Notes: generated from the sequence alone by a model not told the origin. A DNA stretch of 64,000 nucleotides from Alistipes sp. (GCA_045648965.1 JAZRPA010000026.1:9451-73450); one strand, 5' to 3'. Counted from the first letter of the stretch, positions 3,991 through 56,969 are shown. A program made the numbers and translations.

Positions 3991-4029
3991 AATGCAAAAT
4001 GCAAAATGCAAAATGCAGAATTCAAAATT
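3991..4029 (+). repeat. Heptamer tandem array (AATGCAA x3, AATGCAG, AATTCAA)
   Basis: Read directly; same unit as 1218-1249. Confidence 0.85.
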
Positions 4030-4063: not shown

Positions 4064-5377
4064 ATGGCAATTAAATTTGTTACTCCGGAAGAGGCCGTAA
4101 AGGCGATTAAGTCGGGTGATCACATTCACCTTTCGTCGGTTGCTTCGGCACCGCAGTGCTTGATTAAGGCTATGTGCGAGCGTGGTCGCGCAGGCGAGTT
4201 GAAGGACGTTCACATTCACCACCTCCACACCGAGGGTCCTGCACCATACGCAGAGCCTGAGTTCGAGGGTGTATTCCAGCTCGATTCGTTCTTCGTAGGT
4301 GGCAACGTACGTAAGACAACCCAGGCAGGCTATGCTGACTATATTCCAATCTTCTTGAGCGAGACTCAGAAGTTGTATCGTTCGGGTGCAGTACCTTGTA
4401 ACGTGGCTATGATTCAGGTTTCTACCCCTGACCAGCACGGCTATGTTTCGCTCGGTACTTCGGTAGACGCTACCCTCGCAGCTGTTGAGTGCGCCGACAC
4501 CGTAATCGCAGTTATCAACAAGTATGTTCCACGTGCTTGGGGTGATGCTATGATTCACTCGTCGAAGATTGACATCTTCGTTCAGGACGACCAGCCACTC
4601 GAGGAGGCACACTTCTCGGAGCCAAACGAGGTTGAGGTTAAGATTGGTAACCTCTGCGCAGGTCTTATCGAGGACGGTGCAACCTTGCAGATGGGTATCG
4701 GCGCTATTCCTAACGCCGTACTCGCACAGCTCGGCAACCACAAGAACCTCGGTATCCACACCGAGATGTTCGCTGATGGCGTTCTCCCTCTCGTTGAGAA
4801 GGGCGTAATCAATGGCGAGGCTAAGAATATCGATAAGGGTAAGATGGTTTCGACCTTCTTGATGGGTTCGCAGAAGGTTTACGACTTCATCAACGACAAC
4901 CCAGGCGTATTGATGATGGACGTAGGCTACACCAACGATCCATTCATCATCGCAAAGAACGACCGCGTAACAGCTATCAACTCGGCTTTGCAGGTTGACT
5001 TGACAGGTCAGGTTTGCGCTGACTCACTCGGTCGCAAGTTCTACTCGGGCGTAGGTGGTCAGATCGACTTTATCTATGGTGCATCGTTGTCGAAGGGCGG
5101 TAAGGCAATCATCGCTATGCCTTCAATCACCAACAAGGGTGTTTCGAAGATTTCGGACGTTCTCACCGAGGGTGCTGGTGTTGTTACTACTCGTAACCAC
5201 ATCCACTGGTTCGTAACCGAGAATGGTGCTGTTGATTTGTATGGCAAGAGCTTGCAGGAGCGTGCTCGCCTTATCATTTCGGTGGCTCACCCATCGGCTC
5301 AGGAGGCTCTCGACGAGGCAGCGTTCAACCGCTACGGAAGTCATCACCACTATATTAAGGGGTATATGAAAAAGTAA
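4064..5377 (+). CDS. Acetyl-CoA hydrolase/transferase family protein (4-hydroxybutyrate CoA-transferase-like)
   Basis: Motifs LQMGIGAIP, HTEMFADG, NSALQVDLTGQV, SGVGGQIDF; 437 aa. Confidence 0.88.
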   Translation: MAIKFVTPEEAVKAIKSGDHIHLSSVASAPQCLIKAMCERGRAGELKDVHIHHLHTEGPAPYAEPEFEGVFQLDSFFVGGNVRKTTQAGYADYIPIFLSETQKLYRSGAVPCNVAMIQVSTPDQHGYVSLGTSVDATLAAVECADTVIAVINKYVPRAWGDAMIHSSKIDIFVQDDQPLEEAHFSEPNEVEVKIGNLCAGLIEDGATLQMGIGAIPNAVLAQLGNHKNLGIHTEMFADGVLPLVEKGVINGEAKNIDKGKMVSTFLMGSQKVYDFINDNPGVLMMDVGYTNDPFIIAKNDRVTAINSALQVDLTGQVCADSLGRKFYSGVGGQIDFIYGASLSKGGKAIIAMPSITNKGVSKISDVLTEGAGVVTTRNHIHWFVTENGAVDLYGKSLQERARLIISVAHPSAQEALDEAAFNRYGSHHHYIKGYMKK

Positions 5378-5406
5378 TCGGAATACCGAGACTTATCGTA
5401 TATGCA

Positions 5407-5434
5407 AAGCCTTCCCAATCGGGAGGGCTTTTTT
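5407..5434 (+). terminator. Intrinsic terminator
   Basis: Stem AAGCCTTCCC / GGGAGGGCTT followed by a T run, 30 nt after the stop codon. Confidence 0.85.
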
Positions 5435-5439
5435 CTTGG

Positions 5440-5632
5440 CTTTTAGCTATTAGCTTTTTAGCGCAGCATAATGGCATGCGCTCCCGTTGGTCGCTGAATG
5501 GCAACAAATGGCAATCGCTCGTTACACTCGCTGAATGACAAAGCGCCCGTCATTAAGCACTCCTTTGGAGTGCGCTGCCATTAAATGCCATTAAGGGCGA
5601 AAGCCCAAATGCCATTCAATGCCATTTTTGGC
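5440..5632. repeat. Composite palindromic element A (AATGGCA left arm, TGCCATT right arm, internal hairpins)
   Basis: AATGGCA at 5470, 5497, 5507; AATGACA at 5534; CGTCATT at 5548; TGCCATT at 5576, 5586, 5610, 5620; hairpins GCACTCC-TTT-GGAGTGC and GGGC-GAAA-GCCC. Confidence 0.85.
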
Positions 5633-5641
5633 GCACACCTC

Positions 5642-5676
5642 TTGCTCAATCAAAAATAATTTTCTAAATTTGTAGT
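5642..5676 (+). promoter_or_regulatory. Bacteroidota sigma-A promoter of the AT-rich island
   Basis: TTG at 5642 and TAAATTTG (TAnnTTTG) at 5665-5672. Confidence 0.7.
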
Positions 5677-5932
5677 GCAATCCTCAGATTGCAGACATAT
5701 TATTAGTGAAAGTGTTTCGCTAATCCTTTGTAGTGAAATTTGGCGATTTTATAAGCATAAGGATAAGCAACAGCACTCAACACCGCATTTGGTATATCAT
5801 TTTCTACATATACCATTCGGTGTGAGGTATTGTTTATTTATGCTTGGGCCACGCCAAATGCCTACTACTTGATAAACGAACTGCCTCACACTTTCTTTTT
5901 ATATTAACTGCTCGTTCGAGGTAGGTGGGCAA
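5676..5932 (+). ncRNA. Putative structured 5' leader or ncRNA of unknown family
   Basis: Complementary segments found by eye: hairpins at 5676-5693 and 5702-5724; a long nested stem at 5739-5858 (TTTGGCG/CGCCAAA, AAGCATAA/TTATGCTT, CACCG/CGGTG, TGGTATAT/ATATACCA); another stem at 5860-5930. Confidence 0.45.
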
Positions 5933-5949
5933 ACAAAAAAAAATATATT

Positions 5950-6210
5950 ATGGGAAGACATCACGACAACTGTGTCTCAATGATTTTTTTTCTACCAATA
6001 TATATATGCCTTTGGGGCGTTGAGATTGGTATTAAAATAGCAGGAACTTGTGGAATAGCAATCCTTGCAATCTTATGGGTAATATTAGGCATGCCTCTAT
6101 ATCTCTTGATAGATTTATTCGGAGGAGATGCGAAAGATGGCTGGAATTATGGAGATTCTCTTCTTCATATGTTGGATGCCTTGTGGAGTTCAAACATTTT
6201 TATAAAGTAA
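5950..6210 (+). CDS. Hypothetical small membrane protein (86 aa)
   Basis: A-rich initiation region before the ATG; long hydrophobic stretch; AT-rich coding; no family recognised. Confidence 0.55.
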   Translation: MGRHHDNCVSMIFFLPIYICLWGVEIGIKIAGTCGIAILAILWVILGMPLYLLIDLFGGDAKDGWNYGDSLLHMLDALWSSNIFIK

Positions 6211-6219
6211 TACCGTAGT

Positions 6220-6573
6220 ATGAAAGCAAATGTAAGAAATGGATTGACTATTCGTGATTTAAAAGACGAGCTTTTTACAACTAGTCGCTGGAAAAAATTT
6301 GTTTATTTTGCAGCAATCTATAGTTGGGATGATGTTGCTGGTCCCCCGATTGAGAAAGTTATCAAGACGGAGTACAATGGTAAGGTTGTTGCTGCTTTAG
6401 TTTATAGTCTAAAAAGAGGCGGAGAAGATTTAACTGCTAATGATGTACAAACTGCTCTAACATGGTTAGGTGTACCTGAACACACCGAGGTTGTTCTTCT
6501 TGATAAGGACAATTCCACCATAAGTTATGTTAAGAAAGTGTATAGTTGTTTGGATATGATATTTCTATACTGA
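6220..6573 (+). CDS. Hypothetical protein (117 aa)
   Basis: ATG 9 nt after the previous stop; followed by hairpin and terminator; no family recognised. Confidence 0.6.
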   Translation: MKANVRNGLTIRDLKDELFTTSRWKKFVYFAAIYSWDDVAGPPIEKVIKTEYNGKVVAALVYSLKRGGEDLTANDVQTALTWLGVPEHTEVVLLDKDNSTISYVKKVYSCLDMIFLY

Positions 6574-6617
6574 TTTATGTAAATAAGTTATCCATTAGAG
6601 TACAATATATTAAAAGC

Positions 6618-6647
6618 TATATGAAGAAATAGCGATTTCTTCATATA
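6618..6647. repeat. Perfect 13-bp inverted repeat
   Basis: TATATGAAGAAAT-AGCG-ATTTCTTCATATA. Confidence 0.85.
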
Positions 6648-6650
6648 ATC

Positions 6651-6680
6651 ACAAAGACCTTCCATTCGGGAGGTCTTTGT
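6651..6680 (+). terminator. Intrinsic terminator of the island ORFs
   Basis: ACAAAGACCTTCC-ATTC-GGGAGGTCTTTGT. Confidence 0.75.
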
Positions 6681-6699
6681 TGCTTTCGGCATCAAAGAA

Positions 6700-6777
6700 A
6701 ATTTAAGGAATTTAGGGAATATAGAGAATTTAATGAGTCTATTCTAATTTCTTTAATCTCCCTAAACTCTCTAAATT
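6700..6777. repeat. Element C: inverted array of 9-mers (4 + 4)
   Basis: AATTTAAGG AATTTAGGG AATATAGAG AATTTAATG, then TTCTAATTT CTTTAATCT CCCTAAACT CTCTAAATT. Confidence 0.75.
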
Positions 6778-6799
6778 CACTATTAAATAAATTGTCTCT

Positions 6800-6823
6800 C
6801 TACTCACTACTCACTACTCACTA
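6800..6823. repeat. Heptamer tandem array (CTACTCA x3)
   Basis: Read directly. Confidence 0.85.
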
Positions 6824-6857: not shown

Positions 6858-8351
6858 TTATAGCGTTACGCCCGTCTTGAAGATTGCTATCTCCTTGAAG
6901 CCTGTTTTTTCGTGCTTCAGCTTCTCGCCATTGACCGTAGCGAGAATCTTCTCGATAAGGCGCTCCAGCACAACCTGCGGCTCCTCGTCCTCAATCATTG
7001 TGCCGGCATTGAAGTCGATCCAATTAGCCTTGAACTGCGAGAGTTGCGAGTTGGTCGATATCTTCATCGTAGGAACGAACGCCCCAAACGGAGTACCGCG
7101 ACCCGTCGTGAAGAGTACAATCTGGCAACCCGACAACGCAAGCGACGACGAAGCAACGAGGTCGTTACCCGGTGCCTGCAACAGATTCAAGCCCGACTTA
7201 ACAATAGGCTGGCAGTAGCTCAGCACATCGACAACCTGCTGCGCACCACCCTTCTGCACACAACCGAGCGACTTCTCCTCGAGGGTTGTGATACCGCCCT
7301 TCTTATTGCCCGGCGAAGGGTTTTCGTAAATCGGCTGGTCGTACTTGCGGAAGTAGCCCTTGAAGTCGTTGATAAGGCATACCGTATTCTCGAATACCTC
7401 TTTATTTATAGCGCGGTCCATCAGGATAGTCTCGGCACCGAACATCTCGGGCACCTCGGTCAAAATTGTTGTTCCGCCCTGAGCAATAAGCCAATCCGAG
7501 AAGAGGCCCACCAATGGGTTGGCGGTAATGCCCGAAAAACCGTCCGAGCCACCGCACTTCAAGCCCACGCGCAAGTAGCTGAGCGGCAGAGGCTCGCGCT
7601 TATCCTCGCGAGTCTTCTCGACGAGTTCTTTACATATCTCGAAACCCGTTTCAATCTCGTCCTCGACCTCCTGAGCGATAAGGAACTTCACGCGCTCCTC
7701 GTCCCACTCGCCGATAACCTCCTTGAACGAGGCTATCTGGTTGTTCTCGCAACCCAAGCCGAGTACAAGCACCGCACCTGCATTCGGGTGCTTCACCAGC
7801 GCCGCCAATGCGTGCTGCGTATTGGCGTGGTCCTCGCCCAACTGCGAACAACCGTAGTTGTGGGTATAGACGCGTACATCGTCCAAGTGCGAGCAGTCGC
7901 ACTCGCTCTTTACGCGCTCGGCAATAGCCTGCGCCTGGCCATTCACGCAACCTACCGAAGGTACAATCCACAACTCGTTGCGAATACCCATAGTATTGTT
8001 CTTGCGCAAGTAGCCCATAACCTTCATATCGTCGCGCTTTGGATACTCTACCGCATAGGTCTTGTGGTCGTAGGTATATTCGATATTATCGTGCAAGTTG
8101 GTCTTGAGGTTGTGCGAGTGAATCCACGCGCCCACCTCGACTGCCGCCGTTGCGTGGCCGATTGGGTAGCCATACTTGATGACATTCTCACCCTCGGCAA
8201 TCGGCTTAATGGCGAACTTGTGGCCACGACCGATATCCTCCTTCAAGGTTATCGCCTGGCCGTCAATCTCGACCACCTCGCCCGCCTTCAAGTCGTCGGC
8301 AAGAGCTACGGCTACGCTATCGACAGCGTTGATTTTCAAAAATCGTTTCAT
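6858..8351 (-). CDS. uxaA: Altronate dehydratase
   Basis: N-terminal SAF domain (GHKFA, VIKYGYPIG); GLKCGGSDGFSGITANP; operon context. Confidence 0.95.
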   Translation of the reverse strand: MKRFLKINAVDSVAVALADDLKAGEVVEIDGQAITLKEDIGRGHKFAIKPIAEGENVIKYGYPIGHATAAVEVGAWIHSHNLKTNLHDNIEYTYDHKTYAVEYPKRDDMKVMGYLRKNNTMGIRNELWIVPSVGCVNGQAQAIAERVKSECDCSHLDDVRVYTHNYGCSQLGEDHANTQHALAALVKHPNAGAVLVLGLGCENNQIASFKEVIGEWDEERVKFLIAQEVEDEIETGFEICKELVEKTREDKREPLPLSYLRVGLKCGGSDGFSGITANPLVGLFSDWLIAQGGTTILTEVPEMFGAETILMDRAINKEVFENTVCLINDFKGYFRKYDQPIYENPSPGNKKGGITTLEEKSLGCVQKGGAQQVVDVLSYCQPIVKSGLNLLQAPGNDLVASSSLALSGCQIVLFTTGRGTPFGAFVPTMKISTNSQLSQFKANWIDFNAGTMIEDEEPQVVLERLIEKILATVNGEKLKHEKTGFKEIAIFKTGVTL

Positions 8352-11286: not shown

Positions 11287-11319
11287 TTTTTCTATTGTTT
11301 AGATTAGATTAGTATTTAC

Positions 11320-11991
11320 CTATTTTCCACGTACCTCGGCAATAATATCGAGACACTCGCGGCACTTGTCGGTTACGTATGCCCAATCCTCGGCCTTCAC
11401 CTTATCCGAAGGGAAGAGCTTCGAACCCATACCTACGCAATATACGCCCGCCTTGAACCACGATGTAAGGTTATCGCGGTCGGGCGAAACACCACCCGTA
11501 ACCATAACCTTCGACCACGGACATGGAGCCATCAAACCCTTCACCATATTCGGGCCATAGACATCGCCCGGGAAGAGCTTAGTCAAGTCGCAACCCAACT
11601 CCTGAGCCTTGCCAATCTCCGATACGGTACCACAACCCGGGCAGTATGGGATTGAACGACGATTGCAAACAGGTGCAATATCAGGGTTAAAGAGCGGACC
11701 TACAACGAAGCAAGCGCCCAACTGGATATAGAGCGCAGCGGTAGGAGCATCAACGATCGAGCCGATACCCAATGCCAACTCGGGGCACTCGACAGCAGCC
11801 CACTTTACGAGCTCGCCGAAAATCTCGTGCGCGAAGTCGCCACGATTGGTAAACTCGAAAGCACGAACACCGCCCTCGTAGCAAGCCTTCACCACCTTCT
11901 TGGCAACCTCTACGTCCTTGTGGTAGAAAACGGGAACCATACCCGTCTCGCCGATCTTCTGCATTACGGCGATTTTATCAAACTTTGCCAT
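11320..11991 (-). CDS. eda: KDPG/KHG aldolase
   Basis: FEFTNRG, GIGSIVD, KLFPG; between kdgK and the transporter. Confidence 0.92.
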
Positions 11992-12025: not shown

Positions 12026-13045
12026 TTAGCGCTGTACGCGGCCGTTAGCGTTACCGCCCGCCAACGACTCAACCTCCTCAACCGATACGAGGTTGAAATC
12101 GCCATTGATCGTATGCTTCAAAGCCGATGCAGCAACCGCAAACTCGAGAGCCTCGCCCTGATTAGGCTTGGTCAACAAACCGTGAATTACACCGCCCGAG
12201 AACGAATCACCACCACCTACGCGGTCAATGATTGGGTCGATATCGTAGCGCTTCGACTCATAAAACTCCTCGCCGTTATAAATCATCGCCTTCCAGCCAT
12301 TGTGAGTAGCCGAGAATGACTCGCGAAGGGTCGAAATCACATACTTGAAGCCGAACTCCTCAGCCATCTGCTTGAAGATGCCCTTGTAGCCCTCAGCATT
12401 TGTCTCGCCACCCTCGATATCGGCATCAGGCTTAAAGCCAAGACAAAGCTCAGCGTCCTCCTCATTTCCGATGCAGACATCAACATACTGCATCAACGGG
12501 CGCATAATCGACTGTGCCTTCTCCTTTGTCCAGAGCTTCTTGCGGAAGTTTAAATCCACAGAAACGGTTACACCGTGACGCTTAGCAGCCTCGCAAGCGA
12601 GTTTTGTAAGCTCGGCAGCCTTATCCGAAATAGCAGGAGTGATACCCGACCAGTGGAACCAATCGGCACCCTCCATTATAGCGTCAAAATCAAAGTCGGC
12701 AGCCTCGGCCTCGGCAATCGCCGAATGTGCGCGGTCGTAGATAACCTTAGAAGGGCGCATCGAAGCACCCGTCTCGAGGTAGTAGATACCTACGCGATCG
12801 CCACCACGAGCGATAAAGTCGGTCTTTACGCCATACTTGCGAAGTGCATTTACGGCCGACTGGCCAATCTCGTGCTTAGGCAACTTTGTAACAAAGTATG
12901 CATCGTGGCCATAGTTGGCACAGCTGACAGCTACATTCGCTTCGCCACCGCCATAGACTACGTCGAATGAGTCCGACTGCACAAAACGCGTATTGCCCGG
13001 CGTCGAGAGTCGGAGCATAATCTCACCGAAAGTTACGATTTTCAT
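12026..13045 (-). CDS. kdgK: 2-dehydro-3-deoxygluconokinase (PfkB family)
   Basis: FGEIMLRL, GGGEANVA, DLNFRKKLW, DRVGGGDSF. Confidence 0.93.
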   Translation of the reverse strand: MKIVTFGEIMLRLSTPGNTRFVQSDSFDVVYGGGEANVAVSCANYGHDAYFVTKLPKHEIGQSAVNALRKYGVKTDFIARGGDRVGIYYLETGASMRPSKVIYDRAHSAIAEAEAADFDFDAIMEGADWFHWSGITPAISDKAAELTKLACEAAKRHGVTVSVDLNFRKKLWTKEKAQSIMRPLMQYVDVCIGNEEDAELCLGFKPDADIEGGETNAEGYKGIFKQMAEEFGFKYVISTLRESFSATHNGWKAMIYNGEEFYESKRYDIDPIIDRVGGGDSFSGGVIHGLLTKPNQGEALEFAVAASALKHTINGDFNLVSVEEVESLAGGNANGRVQR

Positions 13046-14480: not shown

Positions 14481-14572
14481 AGCTATAGGTTTATATGTGT
14501 ATTTTATGTCGTAAAGATAAATCTTTTTTTCCAATTTCACAACATTTACCAAACATATTAAATCCTATTTTT

Positions 14573-14607
14573 TTGCTCAATCGAAAAAGATTTCCTAAAT
14601 TTGTAGT
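14573..14607 (+). promoter_or_regulatory. Promoter of the S1/P1 nuclease gene
   Basis: TAAATTTG at 14596-14603; 31/35 identical to 5642-5676. Confidence 0.7.
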
Positions 14608-14628: not shown

Positions 14629-15447
14629 ATGAAAAAATTTATTTTCACTATACTTGGCATCGTTTTGATGTGTGGCACAGCATTCGCGTGGGGAACGCGC
14701 GGACACGAGGCAACTGCAAAAATTGCCGAGAAGCACCTCACACCAAAGGCGAAAAAGTTGCTCGACAAGTACCTCGACGGCAAGTCGATTGTCGACTACG
14801 CATCGTGGGCAGATGAGTACAAGCGAGAGCTACTGTTCGAACTCGACTTTGAGCCATCGAACGCACCTCGTAGATTGCGCTATCCGCACACCTTCGAGGC
14901 TAATGCCGACTGTAGCGTCTTCGATGGCGACCGCCGCGGCGATGAGTGGGTCAAGAACTGCGTATATATGGCTGTTGGCTATGCCAATGACCTAAAGGCC
15001 AACCACAAAAATATGGATAACGACGAGCGTTTTCACAAGATTGCGATGCTGATACATTGGCTTGGCGATATGCACTGCCCTGCCCATATTCGCTACCCCG
15101 ATGACCAGACTTCGAGCGGCTACGAGGTGATGATGGGCGACCGCGCCATTTGGTACCACCGATTGTGGGACGGCATACTCTTTAATTGGCTCCACCCGTC
15201 GAGCCGAGGCGATGCCGCCGAGGCGATAGATACCTGCTCAGCAAAGGAGATTGCCAAGATTGTCGAGGGCGACCTATATGATTGGGGTAAAGACTCAGCC
15301 ACCGCCTCGCGTGCAACGCGCAAGTATCGCGCAGGAGCGCAGATTGACAGAGAGGAGTTCATTAAGGAATTTTCCGAACTACTCGACCAGCAAATCCGTA
15401 ATGGTGGCTACCGCTTGGCAAAACTATTCAACGACATATTTCAATAA
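14629..15447 (+). CDS. S1/P1 family nuclease with signal peptide
   Basis: Signal peptide, then AWGTRGH, SWADE, LIHWLGDMHCPAH, HRLWD, QQIRNGGYRLA (S1/P1 zinc-ligand pattern). Confidence 0.9.
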   Translation: MKKFIFTILGIVLMCGTAFAWGTRGHEATAKIAEKHLTPKAKKLLDKYLDGKSIVDYASWADEYKRELLFELDFEPSNAPRRLRYPHTFEANADCSVFDGDRRGDEWVKNCVYMAVGYANDLKANHKNMDNDERFHKIAMLIHWLGDMHCPAHIRYPDDQTSSGYEVMMGDRAIWYHRLWDGILFNWLHPSSRGDAAEAIDTCSAKEIAKIVEGDLYDWGKDSATASRATRKYRAGAQIDREEFIKEFSELLDQQIRNGGYRLAKLFNDIFQ

Positions 15448-15475
15448 AAAAGCCTTCCACTCGGGAAGGCTTTTT
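15447..15475 (+). terminator. Intrinsic terminator
   Basis: AAAAAGCCTTCC-ACTCG-GGAAGGCTTTTT. Confidence 0.85.
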
Positions 15476-15483
15476 CTTGGCTG

Positions 15484-15653
15484 TTAGCCATTGGCCATTA
15501 GCCATTAGCTTTTTAGCGCAGTATAATGGCATTTATAGGACTTAATAGGATAGAATAGGATTCGCACCTAAGGTGCTGAATAGGATTGCGCCTCCTATTA
15601 AAGGGCTGAAAGCCCGTTCCTATTTTTTCCTATTCGTTCCTATTCCCTCCTAC
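15484..15653. repeat. Composite palindromic element B (AATAGGA left arm, TCCTATT right arm)
   Basis: Heptamer array, then TTAGCTTTTTAGCGCAGTATAATGGCAT; core at 15534, 15544, 15554, 15579; TCCTATT at 15593, 15618, 15628, 15638; hairpins GCACC-TAA-GGTGC and GGGCT-GAA-AGCCC. Confidence 0.85.
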
Positions 15654-16501
15654 ATCTTGGCGATGCAATGTTTCAGGGCATCGTGCCACTCGGGGATTTG
15701 AAGTCCAAAGGTCTCGACGAGCTTACTCTTATCCAGCACCGAGTAGCGTGGGCGTTGCGCTCGGGTTGGATAGTCGGCCGTAGTGCAAGGCTTAACCTCG
15801 CAACCACTATTTCCGCTCAGGCGAGCAATCTCGCAAGCAAAGTCGTACCACGAGCAGACACCTTCGTTCGAGTAGTGGTAGATGCCACACTTGTCGAGTT
15901 GATTACTCTCTATGATATAAGTGATAGCGGCAGCTAAATCGCCTGCGTAGGTTGGCGTACCAATCTGATCGGCAACAACCTTAACCTCGGGACGCGATGC
16001 GGTGAGCGACTGCATAGTTTTGCAGAAGTTACGACCAAACTCCGAATAGAGCCACGCCGTACGCAAGATAATGCTCTTACAGCCCGACTCGGCGATAGCC
16101 TTCTCGCCCGCCAACTTCGTACGACCATAGGCACCAAGCGGTGCTGTAGCGCACTCCTCGGTATATGGCACATCGGCCCTACCCGAAAAGACGTAGTCGG
16201 TAGAAATATGAACGAGCGTAGCGTCGTAGCGCTTGCAAGCATCGGCCAACAGAGCCACAGCCTTATGGTTTATCTCGTCGGCCTGCGACTCGTTATCCTC
16301 GGCCAAATCGACCGCTGTGTAAGCGGCGCAATTCACCACCACATCGATCTTCTCGCGCTCGAAAAAGTCCGCAATAGCCGCAGCCGATGTTATATCCAAC
16401 TCCTCGACATCGGTAAAGATAAAGCGGTGGCAGCTCTCGGCCGACGCCAAGCGCAAGGAGCAACCCAACTGCCCGTTTCCACCCGTTACCAATATCGTCA
16501 T
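15650..16501 (-). CDS. rfbD: dTDP-4-dehydrorhamnose reductase
   Basis: ILVTGGNGQLG, NCAAYTAVD, HISTDYVF, YGRTKLAGE. Confidence 0.96.
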   Translation of the reverse strand: MTILVTGGNGQLGCSLRLASAESCHRFIFTDVEELDITSAAAIADFFEREKIDVVVNCAAYTAVDLAEDNESQADEINHKAVALLADACKRYDATLVHISTDYVFSGRADVPYTEECATAPLGAYGRTKLAGEKAIAESGCKSIILRTAWLYSEFGRNFCKTMQSLTASRPEVKVVADQIGTPTYAGDLAAAITYIIESNQLDKCGIYHYSNEGVCSWYDFACEIARLSGNSGCEVKPCTTADYPTRAQRPRYSVLDKSKLVETFGLQIPEWHDALKHCIAKM

Positions 16502-22546: not shown

Positions 22547-22624
22547 GCTATTAGCTATTAGCTCTTAGCCATTAGCCCCCTCAAAAAAATAACTTTTAAC
22601 TTTGAATTTTTAACTTTTAACTAT
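22544..22624 (+). repeat. Two abutting heptamer arrays (TAGCYMT and TAACTTT)
   Basis: TAGCTAT TAGCTCT TAGCCAT TAGCC, then TAACTTT TAACTTT GAATTTT TAACTTT TAACTAT. Confidence 0.85.
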
Positions 22625-23429: not shown

Positions 23430-24584
23430 ATGAAGAAGCTACTTTTTGTTGCGATGTTGCTCTGTGGCATCTACTCGGCACAGGCAATTAAAATTATTCA
23501 CGGCCCTTACCTTCAGGCCGTAACCGATACCGAGGCTACGATTATGTGGGTTACCGACGTAGATGCATTGTCGTGGGTAGAGGTTGCGCCCGAGGACGGC
23601 AAGCACTTCTACTACAAGGATCGTCCGAAGTTCTACCAGACATTCAACGGCAAGCGTGTTATCGGCACTATCCACCAAGTGAAAATCACTGGTTTAGAGC
23701 CAGGCAAGAAGTATCGCTACGCCATCGCCTCGAAGGAGGTTATCGAACAAAAAGGCAATCGCATTCACTACGGTAATGTAGTATCGACTAACGTCTATCG
23801 CAAGGGTGCACAGATAATCCCTACGCTCGACCCTAAGAAGGAGAGTATCGAGTTTGTAGTAATGAACGATGTTCACGCCAAGAACGAGAAGATTGAGGCC
23901 TATCTCACCCACTGCTTCGACAAGAGTAGTACCGATATGGTAATCTTCAACGGCGATATGGTGAGCAGCATTCCAACCGAGCAGATTCTCTTTACCGGCT
24001 TCTTGGATACTGCAGTAAAGCGTTTTGCGAGCGATGTTCCATTCTTCTTCGTACGTGGCAACCACGAGAATAGAGGCAAGTGCTCAACAAAGTATCTCGA
24101 CTACTTCCCTACGACTACGGGCAAGCCTTACTACACATTTACTCACGGCAACACCTTCTTCATTATGCTCGACGGTGGCGAGGATAAGCCAGATAGCAAC
24201 CTCGAGTACTACGAGACCGCTGCCTACGATGCCTACCGCGCCGAGGTTGCCGAGTGGCTCAAGAAGGTTGTCGAGAGCGAGGAGTGCAAGAACGCGAAGC
24301 ACCGCATCGTATGTCTCCACATGCCGCCAATCGACGGCCATAAGATGTGGCACGGCACCAAGCAGATTCGCGAGCTCTATATACCTATATTAAACAAGGC
24401 TAACATCTCGGTAATGTTGTGTGGCCATGTTCATACCTACTCTTTCCACACCGACCAGGCCGAGTTCCCAATCTTGGTAAATTCGTTCAACGACGCTTTG
24501 AAGGTAAAGGTCAATGACGAGGGCATCAAGGTCGATGTTGTGAATATGGAGGGTAAGGTGCTCCACACCCACAACTTCAAATAG
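23430..24584 (+). CDS. Secreted metallophosphoesterase (purple-acid-phosphatase-like N-domain plus calcineurin-like domain), paralog 1
   Basis: Signal peptide; GPYLQ; NDVH, FNGDMV, VRGNHE, CGHVH. Confidence 0.85.
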   Translation: MKKLLFVAMLLCGIYSAQAIKIIHGPYLQAVTDTEATIMWVTDVDALSWVEVAPEDGKHFYYKDRPKFYQTFNGKRVIGTIHQVKITGLEPGKKYRYAIASKEVIEQKGNRIHYGNVVSTNVYRKGAQIIPTLDPKKESIEFVVMNDVHAKNEKIEAYLTHCFDKSSTDMVIFNGDMVSSIPTEQILFTGFLDTAVKRFASDVPFFFVRGNHENRGKCSTKYLDYFPTTTGKPYYTFTHGNTFFIMLDGGEDKPDSNLEYYETAAYDAYRAEVAEWLKKVVESEECKNAKHRIVCLHMPPIDGHKMWHGTKQIRELYIPILNKANISVMLCGHVHTYSFHTDQAEFPILVNSFNDALKVKVNDEGIKVDVVNMEGKVLHTHNFK

Positions 24585-24614: not shown

Positions 24615-25781
24615 ATGAAAAAGCTTTTTCTAATTGCAGCGCTCTTTTGCGGCATCTATTCTGCATCGGCAATTAAAATTATCTATGGCCCTTATTTGCA
24701 GGCCGTAACCGACACTGAAGCAACAATCGTATGGGTAACTGACCAGAAAGCTGTTTCGTGGGTGGAGGTTGCTCCGGTAGACGGCACTAACTTCTACCAT
24801 GTGGAGCGTCCGAAATACTATCAGACCTATCTCGGCAAGCGTATTTTCGGCACTGAGCACCAGGTAAAAATCACAGGCTTGGAGCCAGGTAAGAAGTACT
24901 GCTACTCGGTTTCGTCAAAGGAGGTTCTTGGTATGAAGGGTGCTCGCGTAACATACGGTCACGTTGTTACAGCTCGTATCTATGGCAAGAAGTATCCTGG
25001 ATTCACCACCCTCGACCCTAAGAAGGAGAGCACTCAGTTTATCGTCTTGAACGATATTCACGCAAAGCAGGAGAAGATGGAGGCGTTGCTCAACACATTC
25101 GAGGATAAGAAGACCGACATGGTATTCTACAACGGCGACATGGTAAGCCACGTGCCTAACGTAGAGATTCTCTTCGACGGCTTCGTGAATGCCTCGGTGG
25201 AGCGCTTTGCTAAGCAGGTGCCGTTCTACCTTGTGCGTGGTAACCACGAGACTCGCGGTTTGTTTGCCACAAGCTTCCTCACCTACTTCCCTACCCCAAC
25301 AGGCAAGACCTACTTCACATTGAAGCACGGCGATGTATTCTTCATCATCTTGGACGGTGGCGAGGATAAGCCGGATAGCGACCTCGAGTACTACGAGACC
25401 GCAGTTTACGACCAGTACCGCCGCGAGGAGGCTGAGTGGTTGAAGAAGGTTGTCGAGACCGAGGAGTGCAAGAACGCAAAGTACCGCGTGGTGCTTATGC
25501 ATATGGCTCCAATCGGTGGTAAGAACATGTGGCACGGCCCTAAGTACTCGGGCGAGTGTTTCCTCCCTATCTTGAACAAGGCAAACATCACCGTTATGCT
25601 CGGCGGCCATACTCACCGCTACTCATACACTCACAACAAGCCTGAGGTATCTGACGCAACATTCCCTATCTTGGTAAATGCTCACAACACAGCGTTGAAG
25701 GCAAATGTCAATGCAAACGGCATCAAGATTGACGTTATCGATATGACAGGCAAGGTAACAAAGAGCCACACTTTCAAATAG
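24615..25781 (+). CDS. Secreted metallophosphoesterase, paralog 2
   Basis: Signal peptide; GPYLQ; NDIH, YNGDMV, VRGNHE, GGHTH; collinear with paralog 1. Confidence 0.85.
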   Translation: MKKLFLIAALFCGIYSASAIKIIYGPYLQAVTDTEATIVWVTDQKAVSWVEVAPVDGTNFYHVERPKYYQTYLGKRIFGTEHQVKITGLEPGKKYCYSVSSKEVLGMKGARVTYGHVVTARIYGKKYPGFTTLDPKKESTQFIVLNDIHAKQEKMEALLNTFEDKKTDMVFYNGDMVSHVPNVEILFDGFVNASVERFAKQVPFYLVRGNHETRGLFATSFLTYFPTPTGKTYFTLKHGDVFFIILDGGEDKPDSDLEYYETAVYDQYRREEAEWLKKVVETEECKNAKYRVVLMHMAPIGGKNMWHGPKYSGECFLPILNKANITVMLGGHTHRYSYTHNKPEVSDATFPILVNAHNTALKANVNANGIKIDVIDMTGKVTKSHTFK

Positions 25782-25844: not shown

Positions 25845-25900
25845 AATGGCAAGGAATGGCAGTGAATGACATTGAATGGCATCGTTCGCTTTACGCTCAC
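25845..25900 (+). repeat. Element D: left-arm-only copy of the element A family
   Basis: AATGGCA 25845, AATGGCA 25855, AATGACA 25865, AATGGCA 25875 (exact period 10), then CGTTCGCTTTACGCTCAC. Confidence 0.75.
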
Positions 25901-37716: not shown

Positions 37717-39939
37717 TTACCACTTAGGGTAGATTATCGGCGAGCAGATTCTAATCTCGCTATTGCCTACCGATGTGCCCTCGGCAACAATGCGAGCTGC
37801 CTTGATTGGTCGAGGATTTACAAGTCTCGCACAACCATTTTCCAACTCGGCTACACGCTCGAAATTCACACCATCCTCGCTCACTTCGAGATAACCAGGA
37901 TTTACAATTCGGGCTACTACTCCATAACCGCCCGCCCAGAACTCTATCTCACGGCACTCAACAGGCTCCTCAAACTCGAAGAGAATCCAATCGCCCTTAT
38001 GACAAGTGCGAGTTGTTCGCATATAGTTATAGGTATATAACATTACATTCGAGAACGGATATTCAGGGTTCTCAGGCATTGAAGAGGTCATCTTCACCTT
38101 CGGCTTGATAGTTTCGTAACGCGAAGCGTGAGCAAACTCAGGAGACTTAATGTTGCGATACTCTGCCCAGAAGATATATTGGCCTGGTTTGTCGGTCTGA
38201 ATTGGTTCCTTATAGCGATGCACCTTATCCGAGCCATACTTGCGATAGTAGATTGTGCTGTTGTCAATCTTCTCAACCGAAAGCAAGCCATTCTCATACT
38301 TCACCTCCGAAGGTGTTATGCGGAAATTCAAGCCCATATCCGCCATACGGTCATAGTGGCAGGTATAAAGACGCTTGTGAAGATGCTGCCAATCGTTACC
38401 ACCATTCTTACCCCAGCCCTGTTCTGCCAATGCACACAAACGAGGGAATGTCTGGTACTCGATGAAGTCTGTCGATACATCGCCACCGTGCGAAAGCGCT
38501 ATCTCGCTCCAGAATGGAGCCTCGAAGCCCTCAACAAGAGCAGCCTCCTCAGGGGTAAAGCCTGTTTCTGCAAAATCGAAAGAGTATGTCTTGCGGAAAT
38601 CGAACGCACCTCGACGAATAGGGCGACCCTCTTCGAGCTGGCTCTGGCGCATATCCAAGTAGAAGTACTCCTGCGGCATAAAGATGGTGCGATAGCCCTT
38701 CATCATAACCTCCTTGCATACCTCTGCACTCTTCCAGCCATATACCAAAGCCTCCTTCGACAGACCACCACCGTAGGCAGCCTCGTTCCAAACGCCCGGC
38801 ACCTTGCCATACTTAGCGAGAATTGCCTGGATACGGCCGATAAACATATCCTCCAACTTGTAGCCGTCGGTATAGCCATTCTTTTTGAGCCAAGCCGAGC
38901 AATCAGGGCACTGCTCCCACTGCGAGAGTTTCACCTCATCGCCACCAATATGGAAGTGCTTCGATGGGAACAAAGCGCACACCTCAGCCAAAATCTCTTC
39001 GAGAATAACATAGTTGTTCTCCTTGGTTGCGCAAACAGCATTACGACTGTCGTAGTTACCCTGATTTGCAAACTCTTTATTAACAAAGTTGCAAAGCATC
39101 TGCGGATAGATATGAAGCAGAGCCTCGCTGTGGCCAGGGAGATCAATTTCGGGGATAATCTCAATATTGCGAACCGCAGCGTATGCCACCACCTCACGAA
39201 TCTCCTCTTGCGTGTAATAACCTCCGTACTTCTCCTCCCACTTGCCGAGCGATGCACGCAAAGGCGAATCACCACCTCGGTATCCTGCAACCTTTGCCAA
39301 GTCGGGGTGCGACTTGATCTCTATGCGCCAACCTTGATTATCAGTCAAATGCCAATGCAACTTGTTGATTTTGTGGTAAGCGATATAGTCGATATAGCGC
39401 AACACATTATCCTTGGTCATAAATGTACGCGCCACATCGAGCATAAAGCCACGATATGCGAACTTCGGTTTGTCGGCAACCTCACAACCGAGCACCTCGA
39501 CAGGCAACGACATCTCCTTTGTATAGACTGCGCTCGGCATGAGCTGGAAGAGGGTCTGCACGCCATTGAACGCGCCACCATAGCCGCCCGCAACAATCTG
39601 CACCGACTCGTTCGACACCGAGAGTTTGTACTCCTCCTCGGCAAGCGTTTTATCGAGCGAGAGCGAGATGTAGTTATTCTCAGGAGCTACCTCAACCGCG
39701 TCATCTACATCCAGATATTCGAGCACGTAATTGACGATTGGTTTAAGCTCCTGCGCATCGCAAACAATCTTAGTTGTCGGACGCACCACGAAGTTGGAGT
39801 TGTTTTCACTTACCGAGAGTGGCTGCGGAATAATCGCCACCTCCGAAATAGTGGTTGGGGCAGATGATTTTGTCAACATCACCGCTGCAGAGACGGCAAG
39901 CACCACAAGCACTACCACCGTCAAAAGAGTTTTTTTCAT
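37717..39939 (-). CDS. GH20 beta-N-acetylhexosaminidase, paralog 1
   Basis: RGFMLDVAR, HWHLTDNQGWR, PEIDLPGH, catalytic HIGGDE, WNE. Confidence 0.93.
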   Translation of the reverse strand: MKKTLLTVVVLVVLAVSAAVMLTKSSAPTTISEVAIIPQPLSVSENNSNFVVRPTTKIVCDAQELKPIVNYVLEYLDVDDAVEVAPENNYISLSLDKTLAEEEYKLSVSNESVQIVAGGYGGAFNGVQTLFQLMPSAVYTKEMSLPVEVLGCEVADKPKFAYRGFMLDVARTFMTKDNVLRYIDYIAYHKINKLHWHLTDNQGWRIEIKSHPDLAKVAGYRGGDSPLRASLGKWEEKYGGYYTQEEIREVVAYAAVRNIEIIPEIDLPGHSEALLHIYPQMLCNFVNKEFANQGNYDSRNAVCATKENNYVILEEILAEVCALFPSKHFHIGGDEVKLSQWEQCPDCSAWLKKNGYTDGYKLEDMFIGRIQAILAKYGKVPGVWNEAAYGGGLSKEALVYGWKSAEVCKEVMMKGYRTIFMPQEYFYLDMRQSQLEEGRPIRRGAFDFRKTYSFDFAETGFTPEEAALVEGFEAPFWSEIALSHGGDVSTDFIEYQTFPRLCALAEQGWGKNGGNDWQHLHKRLYTCHYDRMADMGLNFRITPSEVKYENGLLSVEKIDNSTIYYRKYGSDKVHRYKEPIQTDKPGQYIFWAEYRNIKSPEFAHASRYETIKPKVKMTSSMPENPEYPFSNVMLYTYNYMRTTRTCHKGDWILFEFEEPVECREIEFWAGGYGVVARIVNPGYLEVSEDGVNFERVAELENGCARLVNPRPIKAARIVAEGTSVGNSEIRICSPIIYPKW

Positions 39940-39996
39940 AATTTATGGTTTGTTAGGTTTCTACAAAGATAACACAATAAATGCAAAATACAAAAT

Positions 39997-40054: not shown

Positions 40055-42277
40055 CTACCACTTAGGATAGATCTTCGGTGCTCCAACAGCAATCGTCGAT
40101 TGGCCAACAGCCGTATCAGTAGCCACTATTCGAGCTGCTTTGATAGGGCCTGGATTATAGAGCTTCGCAACGCCATACTCCAAGTCCGCCACGCGCTTGA
40201 AGGTCTTACCGTCCTCGCTAATTTCGAGGTAACCCTTCTGGATAAGGCGACTAGCAACGTGGTAGCCACCGGTAAAAAACTCTATCTGACGACACTCGAC
40301 AGGCTTCTCGAACTCGTAGAGGATCCAATCACCCTTATGGCAAGTGCGGGTTGTGCGAATGTTGTGGTAGTAATCGGCAATACGAGCATATCCGCGCTTC
40401 GGGTCCTCAGGCATAGACGAAGTGAGAGTAACCTTCGGCTTAATGGTCTTGTAGCGCGATGAGTGAGCCACCTCAGGCGACTTCAAGCCGCGATACTCGC
40501 TCCAGAAGACATACATACCAGGTTTATCGGTAGAGATTGCACCATTATATTTTTTCACCTTATCCGAACCATCTACGCTATAGTAGATTGTTCCGTTGTC
40601 AATCTTCTCGATAGAGAGCTTACCCTCCTCGTACTTCACTGCTGGAGGTGTGATACGGAAATTAAGACCCATATCGGCCATACGGTCGTAGTGGCATGTA
40701 TAGAGTCGCTTGTGGAACTCCTCCCACTCGCCACCACCATTCTTACCCCAGCCCAACTCAGCGAGGGCGCAGAGACGAGGGAATGTCTGATACTCGATGA
40801 AGTCAATCGACTTGTCGCCACCCTGCGAGAGGAACACCTCGCTCCAATATGGAGCCTCGAAGCCCTCGACGCAAGCCACCTCCTCAGGTGTGAAGCCCTC
40901 CTTCGCGAAGTCGAACGAGTAGACCTTGCGAACGTCGAACTGACCACCCCAGATTGCACCAGGCTCCTGCTTGCTCTGAGCCATATCGAAGTAGAAGAAC
41001 TGCTGCGGCATGAAGATTGTCGGATAGCCCTTCTCCATCACCTGCTTGCACACCTTCGGACTCTTCCAGCCGTGTACGCGAGCCGTCTTATCCAAGCCAC
41101 CGCCAAAGGCTGCCTCGTTCCATACAGCAGGGGTTTTGCCATACTTGGCAAGGATTGCCTGAATACGCGAAATAAACATATCCTCCAACTTGTAGCCATC
41201 GGTATAGCCATTCTTCTTAAGCCAAGCCGAGCAGTCTGGACACTTCTTCCACTGCGCCATGCGCACCTCGTCGCCACCGATATGGAAGAACGACGATGGG
41301 AAGAGCGCACACACCTCCGAGAGAATCTCCTCGAGGAGCTTGTAGTTGCTCTCCTTGGTTGCGCAGATAACGTCGCGGTTATCGTAGTTGCCATTTACGT
41401 CGAGTTCATCGTTTGTGTAGTTGCAGAGCATCTCGGGGTGCACACGCAAGAGCGCCTCGCTATGGCCTGGAAGGTCGATTTCGGGGATTACCTCGATATT
41501 GCGCACTGCAGCGTAGGCCACAACCTCACGAATTTCGTCCTGGGTGTAGTAGCCGCCGTACTTCTCGTCCCACTTGCCCAATGCAGCTCGTAGCTTCGAG
41601 TCGCCACCGCGGAAACCGCCAATCTCGGTAAGCTCGGGGTGCGACTTAATCTCCACGCGCCAGCCCTGATTATCTACGAGGTGCCAATGCAACTTGTTAA
41701 TCTTGTGGTAAGCGATATAGTCGATATAGCGCAACACATTATCCTTGGTCATAAATGTACGCGCCACATCGAGCATAAAGCCGCGATACGCGAACTTCGG
41801 TTTATCGGCAACCTCGCAACCAAGCACCTCGACAGGCAACGACATCTGCTTTGTATAGACTGCGCTTGGCATAAGCTGGAAGAGGGTCTGCACGCCATTG
41901 AACGCGCCACCATAGCCGCCCGCAACAATCTGCACCGACTCGTTCGACACCGAGAGTTTGTACTCCTCCTCGGCAAGCGATTTATCGAGTGCGAGCGAAA
42001 TGTAGTTGCTCTTTGGGGCTACCTCAACCGAGCCACCCACTTTCAGGTATTCGAGCGCGTAGCTGACGATAGGTTTGAGCTCCTTCGCATCACAAACAAT
42101 CTGCGTAGTCGAATTCACAACGAAGTTGCTGTTGTTTTTAGTTACCGAGAGTGGCTGCGGAACTATCGCCACCTCCGAGATAGAGGTTGTTGTCGATGAG
42201 GAGGAGGCAATCGCCACCGCCGAGGCAGAGACTGCGAGCACCACAAGTACCGCCACTGCTAAAAGAGTTTTTTTCAT
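40055..42277 (-). CDS. GH20 beta-N-acetylhexosaminidase, paralog 2
   Basis: Same motifs (HIGGDE); same length (740 aa) as paralog 1; own TATCTTTG promoter at 42303-42310. Confidence 0.93.
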   Translation of the reverse strand: MKKTLLAVAVLVVLAVSASAVAIASSSSTTTSISEVAIVPQPLSVTKNNSNFVVNSTTQIVCDAKELKPIVSYALEYLKVGGSVEVAPKSNYISLALDKSLAEEEYKLSVSNESVQIVAGGYGGAFNGVQTLFQLMPSAVYTKQMSLPVEVLGCEVADKPKFAYRGFMLDVARTFMTKDNVLRYIDYIAYHKINKLHWHLVDNQGWRVEIKSHPELTEIGGFRGGDSKLRAALGKWDEKYGGYYTQDEIREVVAYAAVRNIEVIPEIDLPGHSEALLRVHPEMLCNYTNDELDVNGNYDNRDVICATKESNYKLLEEILSEVCALFPSSFFHIGGDEVRMAQWKKCPDCSAWLKKNGYTDGYKLEDMFISRIQAILAKYGKTPAVWNEAAFGGGLDKTARVHGWKSPKVCKQVMEKGYPTIFMPQQFFYFDMAQSKQEPGAIWGGQFDVRKVYSFDFAKEGFTPEEVACVEGFEAPYWSEVFLSQGGDKSIDFIEYQTFPRLCALAELGWGKNGGGEWEEFHKRLYTCHYDRMADMGLNFRITPPAVKYEEGKLSIEKIDNGTIYYSVDGSDKVKKYNGAISTDKPGMYVFWSEYRGLKSPEVAHSSRYKTIKPKVTLTSSMPEDPKRGYARIADYYHNIRTTRTCHKGDWILYEFEKPVECRQIEFFTGGYHVASRLIQKGYLEISEDGKTFKRVADLEYGVAKLYNPGPIKAARIVATDTAVGQSTIAVGAPKIYPKW

Positions 42278-42317
42278 AATTTATTGGTTTGTTAGGTTTC
42301 TGCAAAGATAGCATAAG

Positions 42318-42350
42318 AAATTAAAAATTAAAAATGTAGAATTAAAAATT
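42318..42350. repeat. Heptamer array (AATTAAA-type)
   Basis: aaattaaaaattaaaaatgtagaattaaaaatt. Confidence 0.7.
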
Positions 42351-45281: not shown

Positions 45282-45291
45282 ATCTGTGTAA

Positions 45292-45322
45292 ATTTTAATT
45301 TTGCATTTTTAATTTTTAATTT
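45292..45322. repeat. Heptamer array between alaS and gpmI
   Basis: aattttaattttgcatttttaatttttaattt. Confidence 0.6.
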
Positions 45323-54403: not shown

Positions 54404-54469
54404 CGCCACCGACTGAACGAATCCTGGTATTACGACAAAAAAAGAGAGACAATTTCTTGTCTCTCTCTG
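54404..54469 (-). repeat. Terminator hairpin plus inverted copy of the tRNA-Pro 3' end and shared motif
   Basis: + strand 54418-54436 CGAATCCTGGTATTACGAC matches the tRNA-Pro 3' end at 17/19; AGAGAGAC/GTCTCTCT hairpin in between. Confidence 0.8.
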
Positions 54470-54544
54470 TCGGGATACCAGGATTCGAACCTGGGACCCT
54501 CTGGTCCCAAACCAGATGCGCTAACCGGACTGCGCTACATCCCG
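54470..54544 (-). tRNA. tRNA-Pro (TGG)
   Basis: CGGGATG...TATCCCG-A; anticodon arm TCTGG-TTTGGGA-CCAGA; CCAGG-TTCGAAT-CCTGG; promoter TACCTTTG at 54562-54569. Confidence 0.95.
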
Positions 54545-56485: not shown

Positions 56486-56627
56486 AGTGTTTTAAGTTAT
56501 ATTTTACCTATCAAATTGCCTTTTCCAGTGCTATAACTGCAATTTTCACAACAAAATTATAAAAATTTTTGAAAAATCTTTGCGAAAATAAAAAATAAAT
56601 AATACTTTTGCACTCGCAATCAAGCAT

Positions 56628-56698
56628 TGGGCTATGGTGTAATGGTAACACTACAGATTCTGGTCCTGTCATTCTAGGTTCGAATCCTGGTAGCCCAA
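56628..56698 (+). tRNA. tRNA-Gln (CTG)
   Basis: TGGGCTA...TAGCCCA-A; anticodon loop TT-CTG-GT; GGTTCGAATCC; promoter TACTTTTG at 56603-56610. Confidence 0.93.
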
Positions 56699-56717
56699 CT
56701 CAAGCGAAATGCAACGA

Positions 56718-56742
56718 CCTCTGCAATGCAGAGGTTTTTTTT
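56718..56742 (+). terminator. Terminator after tRNA-Gln
   Basis: ACCTCTGCA-A-TGCAGAGGT followed by a T run. Confidence 0.75.
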
Positions 56743-56904
56743 ATTTAGAAACAGCCTACACAACAGATATATTTGAAGTGGGCTGTTTTTAAATAAAGGT
56801 GGCTATGCAATAGACATCGTTGCATTTCGCTTGCAAATGTCAGCGGCGCCCTAGGAAAGGCGTTAAGCGGAGCAGACCAACGGTCTGCGTAGTAGCCAAT
56901 CCTG

Positions 56905-56969
56905 AAATAGACGACTCGAAAGTCGTCTATTTTCGTTTTGGGCTACCAGGATTCGTTCAGTCGGTGGCG
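56905..56969 (+). repeat. Hairpin plus perfect antisense copy of the tRNA-Gln 3' end and shared motif
   Basis: AAATAGACGAC/GTCGTCTATTT; TTGGGCTACCAGGATTCG (56938-56955) is the exact reverse complement of 56681-56698. Confidence 0.85.

Follow-up and report, generated by a model that had tools for sequence, protein, structure and literature searches.

Element A is not a discrete conserved RNA gene but a member, together with element B, of a multicopy, modular repeat system that is polymorphic for insertion and deletion. Each copy is a non-coding insertion of 175–200 bp directly after an intrinsic terminator, and it is formed by a heptamer run, a joint and a branched palindrome. The long stem of the palindrome has in its 5' arm a purine-rich word of 7 nt, repeated at 10-nt intervals, and in its 3' arm the pyrimidine-rich complement of that word, and two or three small GC hairpins occupy the junction. 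We think, with about even confidence, that A and B represent a new, lineage-specific and fast-changing family of mosaic repeats of the REP/BIME/BOX kind, which would act as a single-stranded hairpin and undergo concerted evolution in an uncultured gut Rikenellaceae lineage resembling 'Alistipes sp.'.

Genomic setting and anatomy

The window, i.e., the whole stretch of 64,000 nucleotides that was analysed, is a segment of bacterial chromosome with the genes nusA, infB, acetyl-CoA hydrolase/transferase, uxaA/uxaC, S1/P1 nuclease and rmlD-rmlC, the rml genes sitting behind a UpxY-type NusG. The nearest proteins to those of the window are from 'Alistipes sp.'/Rikenellaceae MAGs, and near-identical DNA is present in bovine, pig and other gut metagenomes. 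Element A lies directly 3' of the acetyl-CoA hydrolase terminator and element B between the convergent S1/P1 nuclease and rmlD genes; with the half element listed in Table 1 they make three copies of the A/B type in 64 kb, all intergenic. No protein-coding potential was found in A or B, and their six-frame translations gave no match in the protein database at E ≤ 10.

Table 1. Coordinates of elements A and B, their parts, and the two related arrays of the window
Feature	Position	Strand	Remarks
Element A, whole	about 5435-5636	+	~180-200 bases
Hydrolase intrinsic terminator	5406..5431	+	terminator scan; host sequence, left insertion boundary of A
A heptamer run TTRGCYN (CTTGGCT TTTAGCT ATTAGCT ...)	5435..5458	+	
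A 23-mer joint TTTTTAGCGCAGCATAATGGCAT	5455..5477	+	includes first AATGGCA word (5470-5476)
A left-arm words AATGGCA	5497 and 5507 (5497..5513)	+	10 nt apart
A hairpin b, AATGACA-aaGCGCCcg-TCATT	5534..5554	+	
A hairpin a, GCACTCC-TTT-GGAGTGC	5557..5573	+	
A right arm TGCCATT	5576, 5586, 5610, 5620 (5576..5626)	+	
A hairpin c GGGCGAAAGCCC	5595-5606	+	between right-arm words two and three
A closing GGCGCAC	5630..5636	+	pairs with GCGC at 5461-5464
A, all words	AATGGCA 5470, 5497, 5507; AATGACA 5534; TGCCATT 5576, 5586, 5610, 5620		
Element B, whole	15476 to about 15650	+	right end 15650 or up to ~15662; ~175 bp
Bidirectional terminator after S1/P1 nuclease gene	15447..15475	+	host sequence, left boundary of B
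B heptamer run CTTGGCT GTTAGCC ATTGGCC ATTAGCC ATTAGCT	15476..15511	+	TRF
B 23-mer joint	15510..15532	+	Y position is T
B left-arm words TATAGGA, AATAGGA, AATAGGA	15534, 15544, 15554 (15534..15560)	+	10 nt apart
B hairpin a, GCACC-TAA-GGTGC	15564..15576	+	
B hairpin b, AATAGGA-ttGCGCC-TCCTATT	15579..15599	+	fourth word pair
B hairpin c GGGCTGAAAGCCC	15603..15615	+	
B right-arm words TCCTATT x3, TCCTACA	15618, 15628, 15638; 15648 (15618..15654)	+	10-nt spacing
B, all words	TATAGGA 15534; AATAGGA 15544, 15554, 15579; TCCTATT 15593, 15618, 15628, 15638; TCCTACA 15648		
A-type half element, AATGGCA/AATGACA x4 at 10 nt	25845..25881	+	after terminator
Same-design palindrome, 9-nt words (GAATTTAGG / CCTAAATTC type)	6700..6778	+	between two terminators

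Every motif named in the initial annotation was found where it had been placed in A and B. The ordered scaffold that it described stands as regards the shared motifs, but the order of the inner hairpins is opposite: hairpin b precedes the GCAC hairpin a in A and follows it in B. Otherwise the layouts are similar, A having one extra right-arm word. The terminators, which had been counted as parts of the elements, are host terminators, each of them kept in relatives that lack the element concerned. Straight after the terminator T-run, CTTGGCT opens both elements; TTCTTGGC is simply the degenerate heptamer with which the TTRGCYN run begins. The 23-mer TTTTTAGCGCAGYATAATGGCAT occurs in the window only in the two joints (0 expected from shuffles), and the GGGC(N)GAAAGCCC hairpin only as the two hairpins c. 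Within the common 23-mer, B keeps an A-type word, AATGGCA, at 15525-15531, and its last word, TCCTACA, shares bases with the stop codon of rmlD (minus strand, 15650-15652).

The core is AATGGCA/TGCCATT in A and AATAGGA/TCCTATT in B with the complementarity of the arms kept, as had been proposed, and the same holds for at least three more word types in relatives. The 10-nt spacing is far above chance, with 7 A-word pairs and 4 B-word pairs against 0.01 expected. No two of the 3-nt spacers between the words are alike, and those of one arm do not complement those of the other, so the stem is a series of 7-bp helices split by 3x3 loops. Outside the elements the A and B words are not enriched in the window.

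When the arm-to-arm fold was checked, A and B gave better folds than shuffled controls on either strand (z from -3.2 to -5.0). The predicted fold of B is a clean four-way junction, in which the long stem pairs the words at 15534/15638, 15544/15628 and 15554/15618 and hairpins a, b and c are placed at the junction. The minus strand folds as well as or better than the plus strand, and the strand preference by G.U counts and by MFE is inconsistent among elements.

The half element is followed by a TCGCT..ACGCTC spacer like that of A, with no recognisable right arm. After the palindrome at 6700-6778 comes a heptamer array, (CTCACTA)4 at 6796-6823, and both the arms of the palindrome and this array are multicopy in metagenomes.

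Presence, absence and word exchange in relatives

The comparison with relatives defines the left boundaries. In L140/L141, whose nuclease is 91% identical, the same 29-nt terminator abuts the rmlD stop codon and B is absent, which makes B an insert of ~175 bp from 15476. L018 (nuclease 89% identical) is also without B. Thus, the nuclease-rmlD junction has the presence/absence polymorphism with sharp boundaries that is expected of MITEs. The last rmlD codons of the window differ from those of the relatives, so B may supply them. No clear target-site duplication was seen: the junction of B can be read with a 2-nt CT ambiguity or with imperfect CTTGGC direct repeats at 15476 and 15656, and the empty site has no CTTGGC. 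The arms of the elements are themselves inverted repeats. The hydrolase terminator also follows its gene in L011-L017 and L145-147, all of them without element A.

Further copies with other core units were sought, as the initial annotation had suggested, and palindromes of the same design with other words were found in relatives. L145-147, with a 98% identical hydrolase, carry at the site of A a palindrome after the same terminator and before the same right flank, GCGC(C/A)ACACCTC. Its left words are TGTTAAGGG / TGTTAATGA / TGTTAAGGG and its right words CCCTTAA / CCATTAA / CCCTTAA with 10-nt spacing, that is, of type TTAAGGG/CCCTTAA; the middle variant is roughly mirrored, being one base off the exact complement. 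This palindrome folds at -43 kcal/mol (z -6.5). In L010, where the hydrolase is again 98% identical, palindromes of the GGAATTTAGG type flank a four-helix-bundle protein gene at the position of A. L142 and L019/20 have an AATAGGG/CCCTATT palindrome upstream of the nuclease promoter, and L148 has a long TAAGGAG/CTCCCTAA palindrome between rimP and nusA. Words of the GAATTTAGG/TAAGGAG type are common to the window palindrome at 6700, L010 and L148.

There are thus at least five related words, which differ by one or two compensated positions and form a network of neighbours one or two compensated steps apart: AATGGCA, AATAGGA, AATAGGG, TTAAGGG, TTTAGGG and TAAGGAG. The words are perfectly kept beside spacers saturated with differences, and the same small vocabulary recurs across loci, across genomes and community-wide. 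The content and length of the arrays are hypervariable among strains. In every case that could be judged, the purine-rich arm comes first along the direction of the flanking gene. Among metagenome copies, hairpin a has compensatory double changes (C5560/G5570 to G/C; C5563/G5567 to T/A), and alternative stems such as GCAGTC..GACTGC and GCAGTCC..GGACTG keep the pairing. Most metagenome copies have AATGGCA in hairpin b of A, which gives a G.T/U pair, and the +T version of hairpin c, as in B, is also present in some A-type copies.

The four-helix-bundle protein gene of L010 (11378-12120) encodes 182 aa with a TIGR04258 suffix domain and TIGR02436; its family also covers proteins encoded within 23S rRNA intervening sequences.

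Copy number in metagenomes and possible transcripts

In Logan contigs from gut metagenome DNA the core of A (about 5470-5626) reaches a depth of 150-490 against <20 in the flanks; it is ~10x deeper than its own flanks and has many discordant loose ends. Variants of the core in metagenome contigs include internal deletions, a 72-nt tandem duplication, and missing or swapped modules. Only about a fifth of the A-type copies retain the 5' joint, and in other copies (AATGCAR)n heptamers replace (TTAGCYA)n. The heptamer runs as such are extremely abundant as stand-alone repeats: those of the TTAGCCA type reach depths of 1400-2700 in gut DNA and RNA runs, where their flanks are of many kinds, and CTCACTA reaches up to about 1980. 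An exact scan for the scaffold 18-mer (TTAGCGCAGNATAATGGCA) gave only chance matches in coding regions of GTDB representative genomes and JGI metagenome contigs, so the family size rests on the depth of short Logan contigs.

Transcription, for which a check had been proposed, is suggested by contigs over 5457-5629 in four gut metatranscriptome assemblies, at a depth similar to that of the neighbouring gene; these contigs are unstranded and DNA carry-over is possible. Some of them continue into the upstream heptamers, so that no defined 5' end is visible. The depth profile of A is alike in DNA and RNA runs because the element is repeated. For B, we infer that it must be transcribed on the minus strand within the rmlD 3' UTR, since the only terminator lies beyond it.

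Comparison with described repeat families

Extragenic palindromic repeats (REP, BIME, BOX, Correia) have been well studied in Proteobacteria and Firmicutes. Literature searches retrieved no described family matching A/B and no extragenic palindromic repeats for gut Rikenellaceae or Alistipes. Only three tRNAs of the window reach the Rfam gathering threshold, and for A and B nothing credible appeared in Rfam at E up to 5; BTnc231 gave a weak hit on the palindrome plus terminator at 6650-6794, with 27.5 bits against a threshold of 80.4. Blastn of A against plasmids and phages gave no match either, and a search of viral contigs for word-array and hairpin-c patterns gave only unrelated phage arrays (L044, L109) and chance matches. 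The suggestion of an undescribed family therefore agrees with the absence of matches in Rfam, plasmids, phages and the literature searched. The arrays of those unrelated phage contigs (L044, about 7540-7640; L109, about 4700-4900) have the same layout as A, at least four ATGGCA-containing words phased at 10-12 bp and then their complements.

In Enterobacteria and Pseudomonas, the REP/BIME elements, which RAYT proteins (TnpA_REP, Y1 HUH) mobilise, are like A/B short non-coding extragenic palindromes, often placed at gene 3' ends or between convergent genes and present in many copies per genome; both are mosaics of palindromic units and defined linkers that are thought to act as hairpins in ssDNA or RNA. 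The A/B family shares with them a high copy number at extragenic sites with differing flanks. The hallmark of REP is an imperfect palindrome of 20-40 nt with GT[AG]G or CGTC at its foot, whereas A/B have no such head (nor CTAC/GACG) at any hairpin foot, the sole CTAC (15650-15653) being the rmlD stop-codon region. Moreover, the A/B palindrome spans 90-170 nt and is branched, with arms of a phased 7-nt word that varies among copies. Members of RAYT subclass 2.6, which is rich in Bacteroidetes, are reported to be flanked by 'atypical secondary structures' without GTAG (PMC6006769). The search for a co-occurring transposase or RAYT, also proposed in the initial annotation, found none in the ~64 kb of the window and ~200 kb of relatives, and no ORF with HUH and Y motifs is present in the window or in the loci of the relatives.

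Pneumococcal BOX elements (boxA-boxB(n)-boxC) are modular like A/B, with a variable number of internal modules and complementary ends that give a long hairpin. BOX and the RUP/Correia-type MITEs are also intergenic, co-transcribed with their neighbours and polymorphic for presence between strains, as are A/B. There is no sequence similarity with BOX, whose modules are of 45-59 nt and fixed sequence, whereas in A/B a word of 7 nt, swapped between copies, alternates with a free spacer of 3 nt. Unlike Correia/RUP, A/B have no clear TIR/TSD.

Heptanucleotide arrays, such as the cyanobacterial STRR and the TAACTGA repeats of Beggiatoaceae, Cyanobacteria and Bacteroidetes, consist of one short word in tandem at very many intergenic sites per genome; their origin and function are unexplained, and binding of post-transcriptional regulators has been proposed (PMC4679880). 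The TTAGCCA, AATGCAR and CTCACTA runs found here are of this same class. Such arrays run without gaps (period 7) and are nearly always direct, whereas the words of A/B are spaced by 9-10 nt and are set in complementary arms with inner hairpins; within A/B only the 5' heptamer run consists of tandem 7-nt units of the kind found at many intergenic loci. Iteron and centromere arrays (parC of R1, omega heptads of pSM19035) and the multi-site ends of Tn7/Mu are also made of short identical phased sites, direct and inverted, and all their sites change together between related replicons, as in A/B. They adjoin the gene of their own binding protein on plasmids or transposons, whereas for A/B no such gene was seen and several word types share one chromosome.

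Other candidates were discarded. No GTTRRRY/RYYYAAC pair bounds A or B, as an integron attC site would require; for an inverton (invertible promoter), there is no TAnnTTTG between the arms and only one contig joint with the opposite strand was seen; and retrons, CRISPR and DNA-uptake sequences were set aside for want of their core motifs, of any RT or cas gene in the neighbourhood and of an enrichment of the words beyond the elements.

Interpretation and alternatives

The initial annotation saw in A and B either selection on a folded structure or a mechanism that templates one arm from the other. The kept complementarity and the covarying inner hairpin agree with this proposal, be it for RNA or for ssDNA, and pairing alone is insufficient as an explanation. 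In the reading that we prefer, the element would act, and be maintained, in single-stranded form, folded into a hairpin or four-way junction; the molecule could be a read-through or 3'-UTR transcript, or ssDNA arising when DNA is replicated or mobilised. Interrupted by a 3x3 internal loop every 7 bp, the stem would not become a long perfect duplex. Concerted evolution could keep the arms complementary through slippage among the 10-nt repeats, through intrastrand (quasi-palindrome) template switching or through gene conversion between the arms, and ectopic exchange between copies might take place through the shared modules, i.e., heptamer runs, 23-mer and promoter module. Their biological effect is probably that of REP/BIME/BOX-type elements, which for the most part are selfish or neutral and may contribute to termination, to insulation or to the protection of 3' ends between transcription units.

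The words themselves seem to matter somehow, because they are perfect beside free spacers, recur at many loci and also occur in 10-nt arrays without a partner. Since pure pairing does not explain perfect words, a shared vocabulary and partnerless arrays, a model in which a protein or a guide reads the words deserves weight. The elements would then be arrays of protein-binding sites, 7-bp words one helical turn apart read on double-stranded DNA, either by an iteron/centromere-like protein or as multi-site ends of the Tn7/Mu/Tn402 type or hAT-like, reduced to a MITE, with word changes as co-evolving switches of specificity. The exact phasing at 10 nt and the presence of perfect words next to free spacers of 3 nt fit this proposal well, as do the solo direct arrays without a complementary arm (25845-25881 in the window; 926-1020 in L145), the identical words across many loci and genomes, the conserved promoter module directly downstream of three elements, and the similar ATGGCA arrays in both orientations in unrelated phage contigs. 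We nevertheless consider it unlikely: at least five word types on one scaffold would require an equal number of cognate proteins, the word variants are roughly mirrored, position by position, between the arms, the inner hairpins co-vary, and no candidate binding protein or transposase is nearby. More speculative, and in our opinion very improbable, is that the 7-nt words are an address code, each type being written or homogenised by a dedicated templated process or read by a matching programmable partner. The templated process might depend on a small nucleic acid serving as guide or template, or on a RAYT-like enzyme of an atypical Bacteroidetes kind able to read a guide sequence; if the code were real, both arms of a whole array could be re-coded together at one locus on the time scale of 98%-identical neighbouring genes.

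A structured sRNA or 3'-UTR RNA family on the plus strand, in which the 7-nt word would be a repeated seed or sponge motif masked by the complementary arm, and a neutral by-product of slippage are both less likely than the preferred reading, and we regard each as improbable. An RNA would be in keeping with the metatranscriptome contigs over 5457-5629 in four runs, the GNRA-type loop of hairpin c, the G.U-compatible variants of the plus strand (AATGGCA with TGTCATT), the compensatory changes and a TATAAT-like box inside the conserved 23-mer. However, the element has no Bacteroidetes-type promoter (TAnnTTTG), lies downstream of strong terminators and is missing at the same locus in close relatives; the RNA contigs reach the upstream heptamers and leave the 5' end undefined, the minus strand folds equally or better, and no Rfam family matches. 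As for slippage, replication slippage would produce the 7-10-nt arrays and template switching their inverted copies, with no function or mobility. About ten heptamer arrays in 64 kb, the existence of heptanucleotide SSRs as a known class (PMC4679880) and the hypervariable content and length of the arrays among strains speak for such an origin. Against it, the same words and entire elements are found from genome to genome between differing flanks, the spacers would have been duplicated too, yet all differ, and two loci separated by 10 kb have kept the 23-mer and hairpin c in common.

Returning to a mosaic repeat family, which we favour, we think that it offers a natural system for the concerted evolution of palindromes by slippage, quasi-palindrome template switching and ectopic conversion, as word swaps affect the two arms jointly, and do so even within a single locus when very close strains are compared. 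The word, with its 7 nt and one-helical-turn phase, is a readable internal code, which allows asking whether a protein or an RNA reads it. Besides, such elements can be confused with invertons, sRNAs or CRISPR-like arrays, and short-read assemblies of abundant rumen/gut Bacteroidales break at them, nearby contigs being typically of 1-4 kb.

Other repeats and modules in the region

About ten heptamer arrays were detected in the 64 kb (TRF), which is unusually many, and some lie between genes of one operon. Intergenic ones are found at 1218-1248, 3991-4028, 6796-6823, 22547-22622, 42318-42350, 45289-45322 and 56585-56604, and the units in the window are AATGCAG, AATGCAA, CTCACTA, GCTATTA, TAACTTT, AAATTAA, TAATTTT and AAAATAA. 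Between rimP and nusA, L145 (905-1050) has two adjacent direct arrays of 10-nt units, (GGCTAGTAAN)3 and (CCCCAGTAAN)3. They are non-complementary and give no fold signal (926-1020); their CCCCAGT is also the classical cyanobacterial STRR1 heptamer.

A promoter module of ~34 nt (TTGCTCAATCRAAAA..ATTTYCTAAATTTGTAG) is present twice in the window, nearly identical at 5642-5675 and 14573-14606, in both places immediately 3' to a word-array element or to what is left of one (TCCTATT at 14563), and it is also found in L010, L018, L019, L140 and L142. Just downstream of A it contains the Bacteroidetes promoter TAAATTTG (5665-5672). The stretch 5665-5905, with the promoter TTGC..TAAATTTG at 5642-5672, is a candidate non-coding RNA or leader: it has a predicted start near 5680, a conserved hairpin (TTAGTGAAAGTGTTTCGCTAA), a long-range stem GGTGTGAGG/CCTCACAC and then a T-run at ~5895-5905. 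It gave no Rfam match, and L010 has a conserved counterpart at 12120-12380; metagenome coverage is deep over the 5' part, and the centre varies in length among metagenome copies (joints 5728-5820).

The window has two copies of the hydrolase gene's 3' end, at 5352-5377 and at 6607-6680. The functional end with its terminator is like that of the L011-type lineage, and the orphan second end (TATTAAAAGCTATATGAAGAAATAG plus terminator) is like the L010 type. The 1.25 kb between them, which hold A, the RNA candidate and two ORFs (5950-6210 and 6220-6573) with no family match, look like a recombination patch from another lineage. L011-L017 (about 11290-11900; 2008-2400 in L017) have one to three tandem copies of a ~195-bp unit, in which a duplicate of the hydrolase gene's final 27 nt and of its terminator comes first and a module TATAGTGGTGRTGCATAATATTGACATT..CCCCCTTTGGGAAAGGGGGACTTTGGTCGCTACGCTCC next. 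Parts of this module (GGTCGCT, GCGCTCC) recur inside A and beside the palindromes of L019 and L145.

Two tandem gene duplications are present in the window, 38066-39951 with 40401-42289 and 23818-24584 with 25003-25781. Both have 72-81% DNA identity, their repeat spacings are ~2.33 kb and ~1.19 kb, and the upstream regulatory regions were copied as well. Finally, inverted copies of tRNA 3'-end sequence (CGAATCCTGGTA...) at 54418-54487 and 56681-56955 adjoin tRNA-Pro (54469-54544) and tRNA-Gln (56628-56699), and may be remnants of integration sites.
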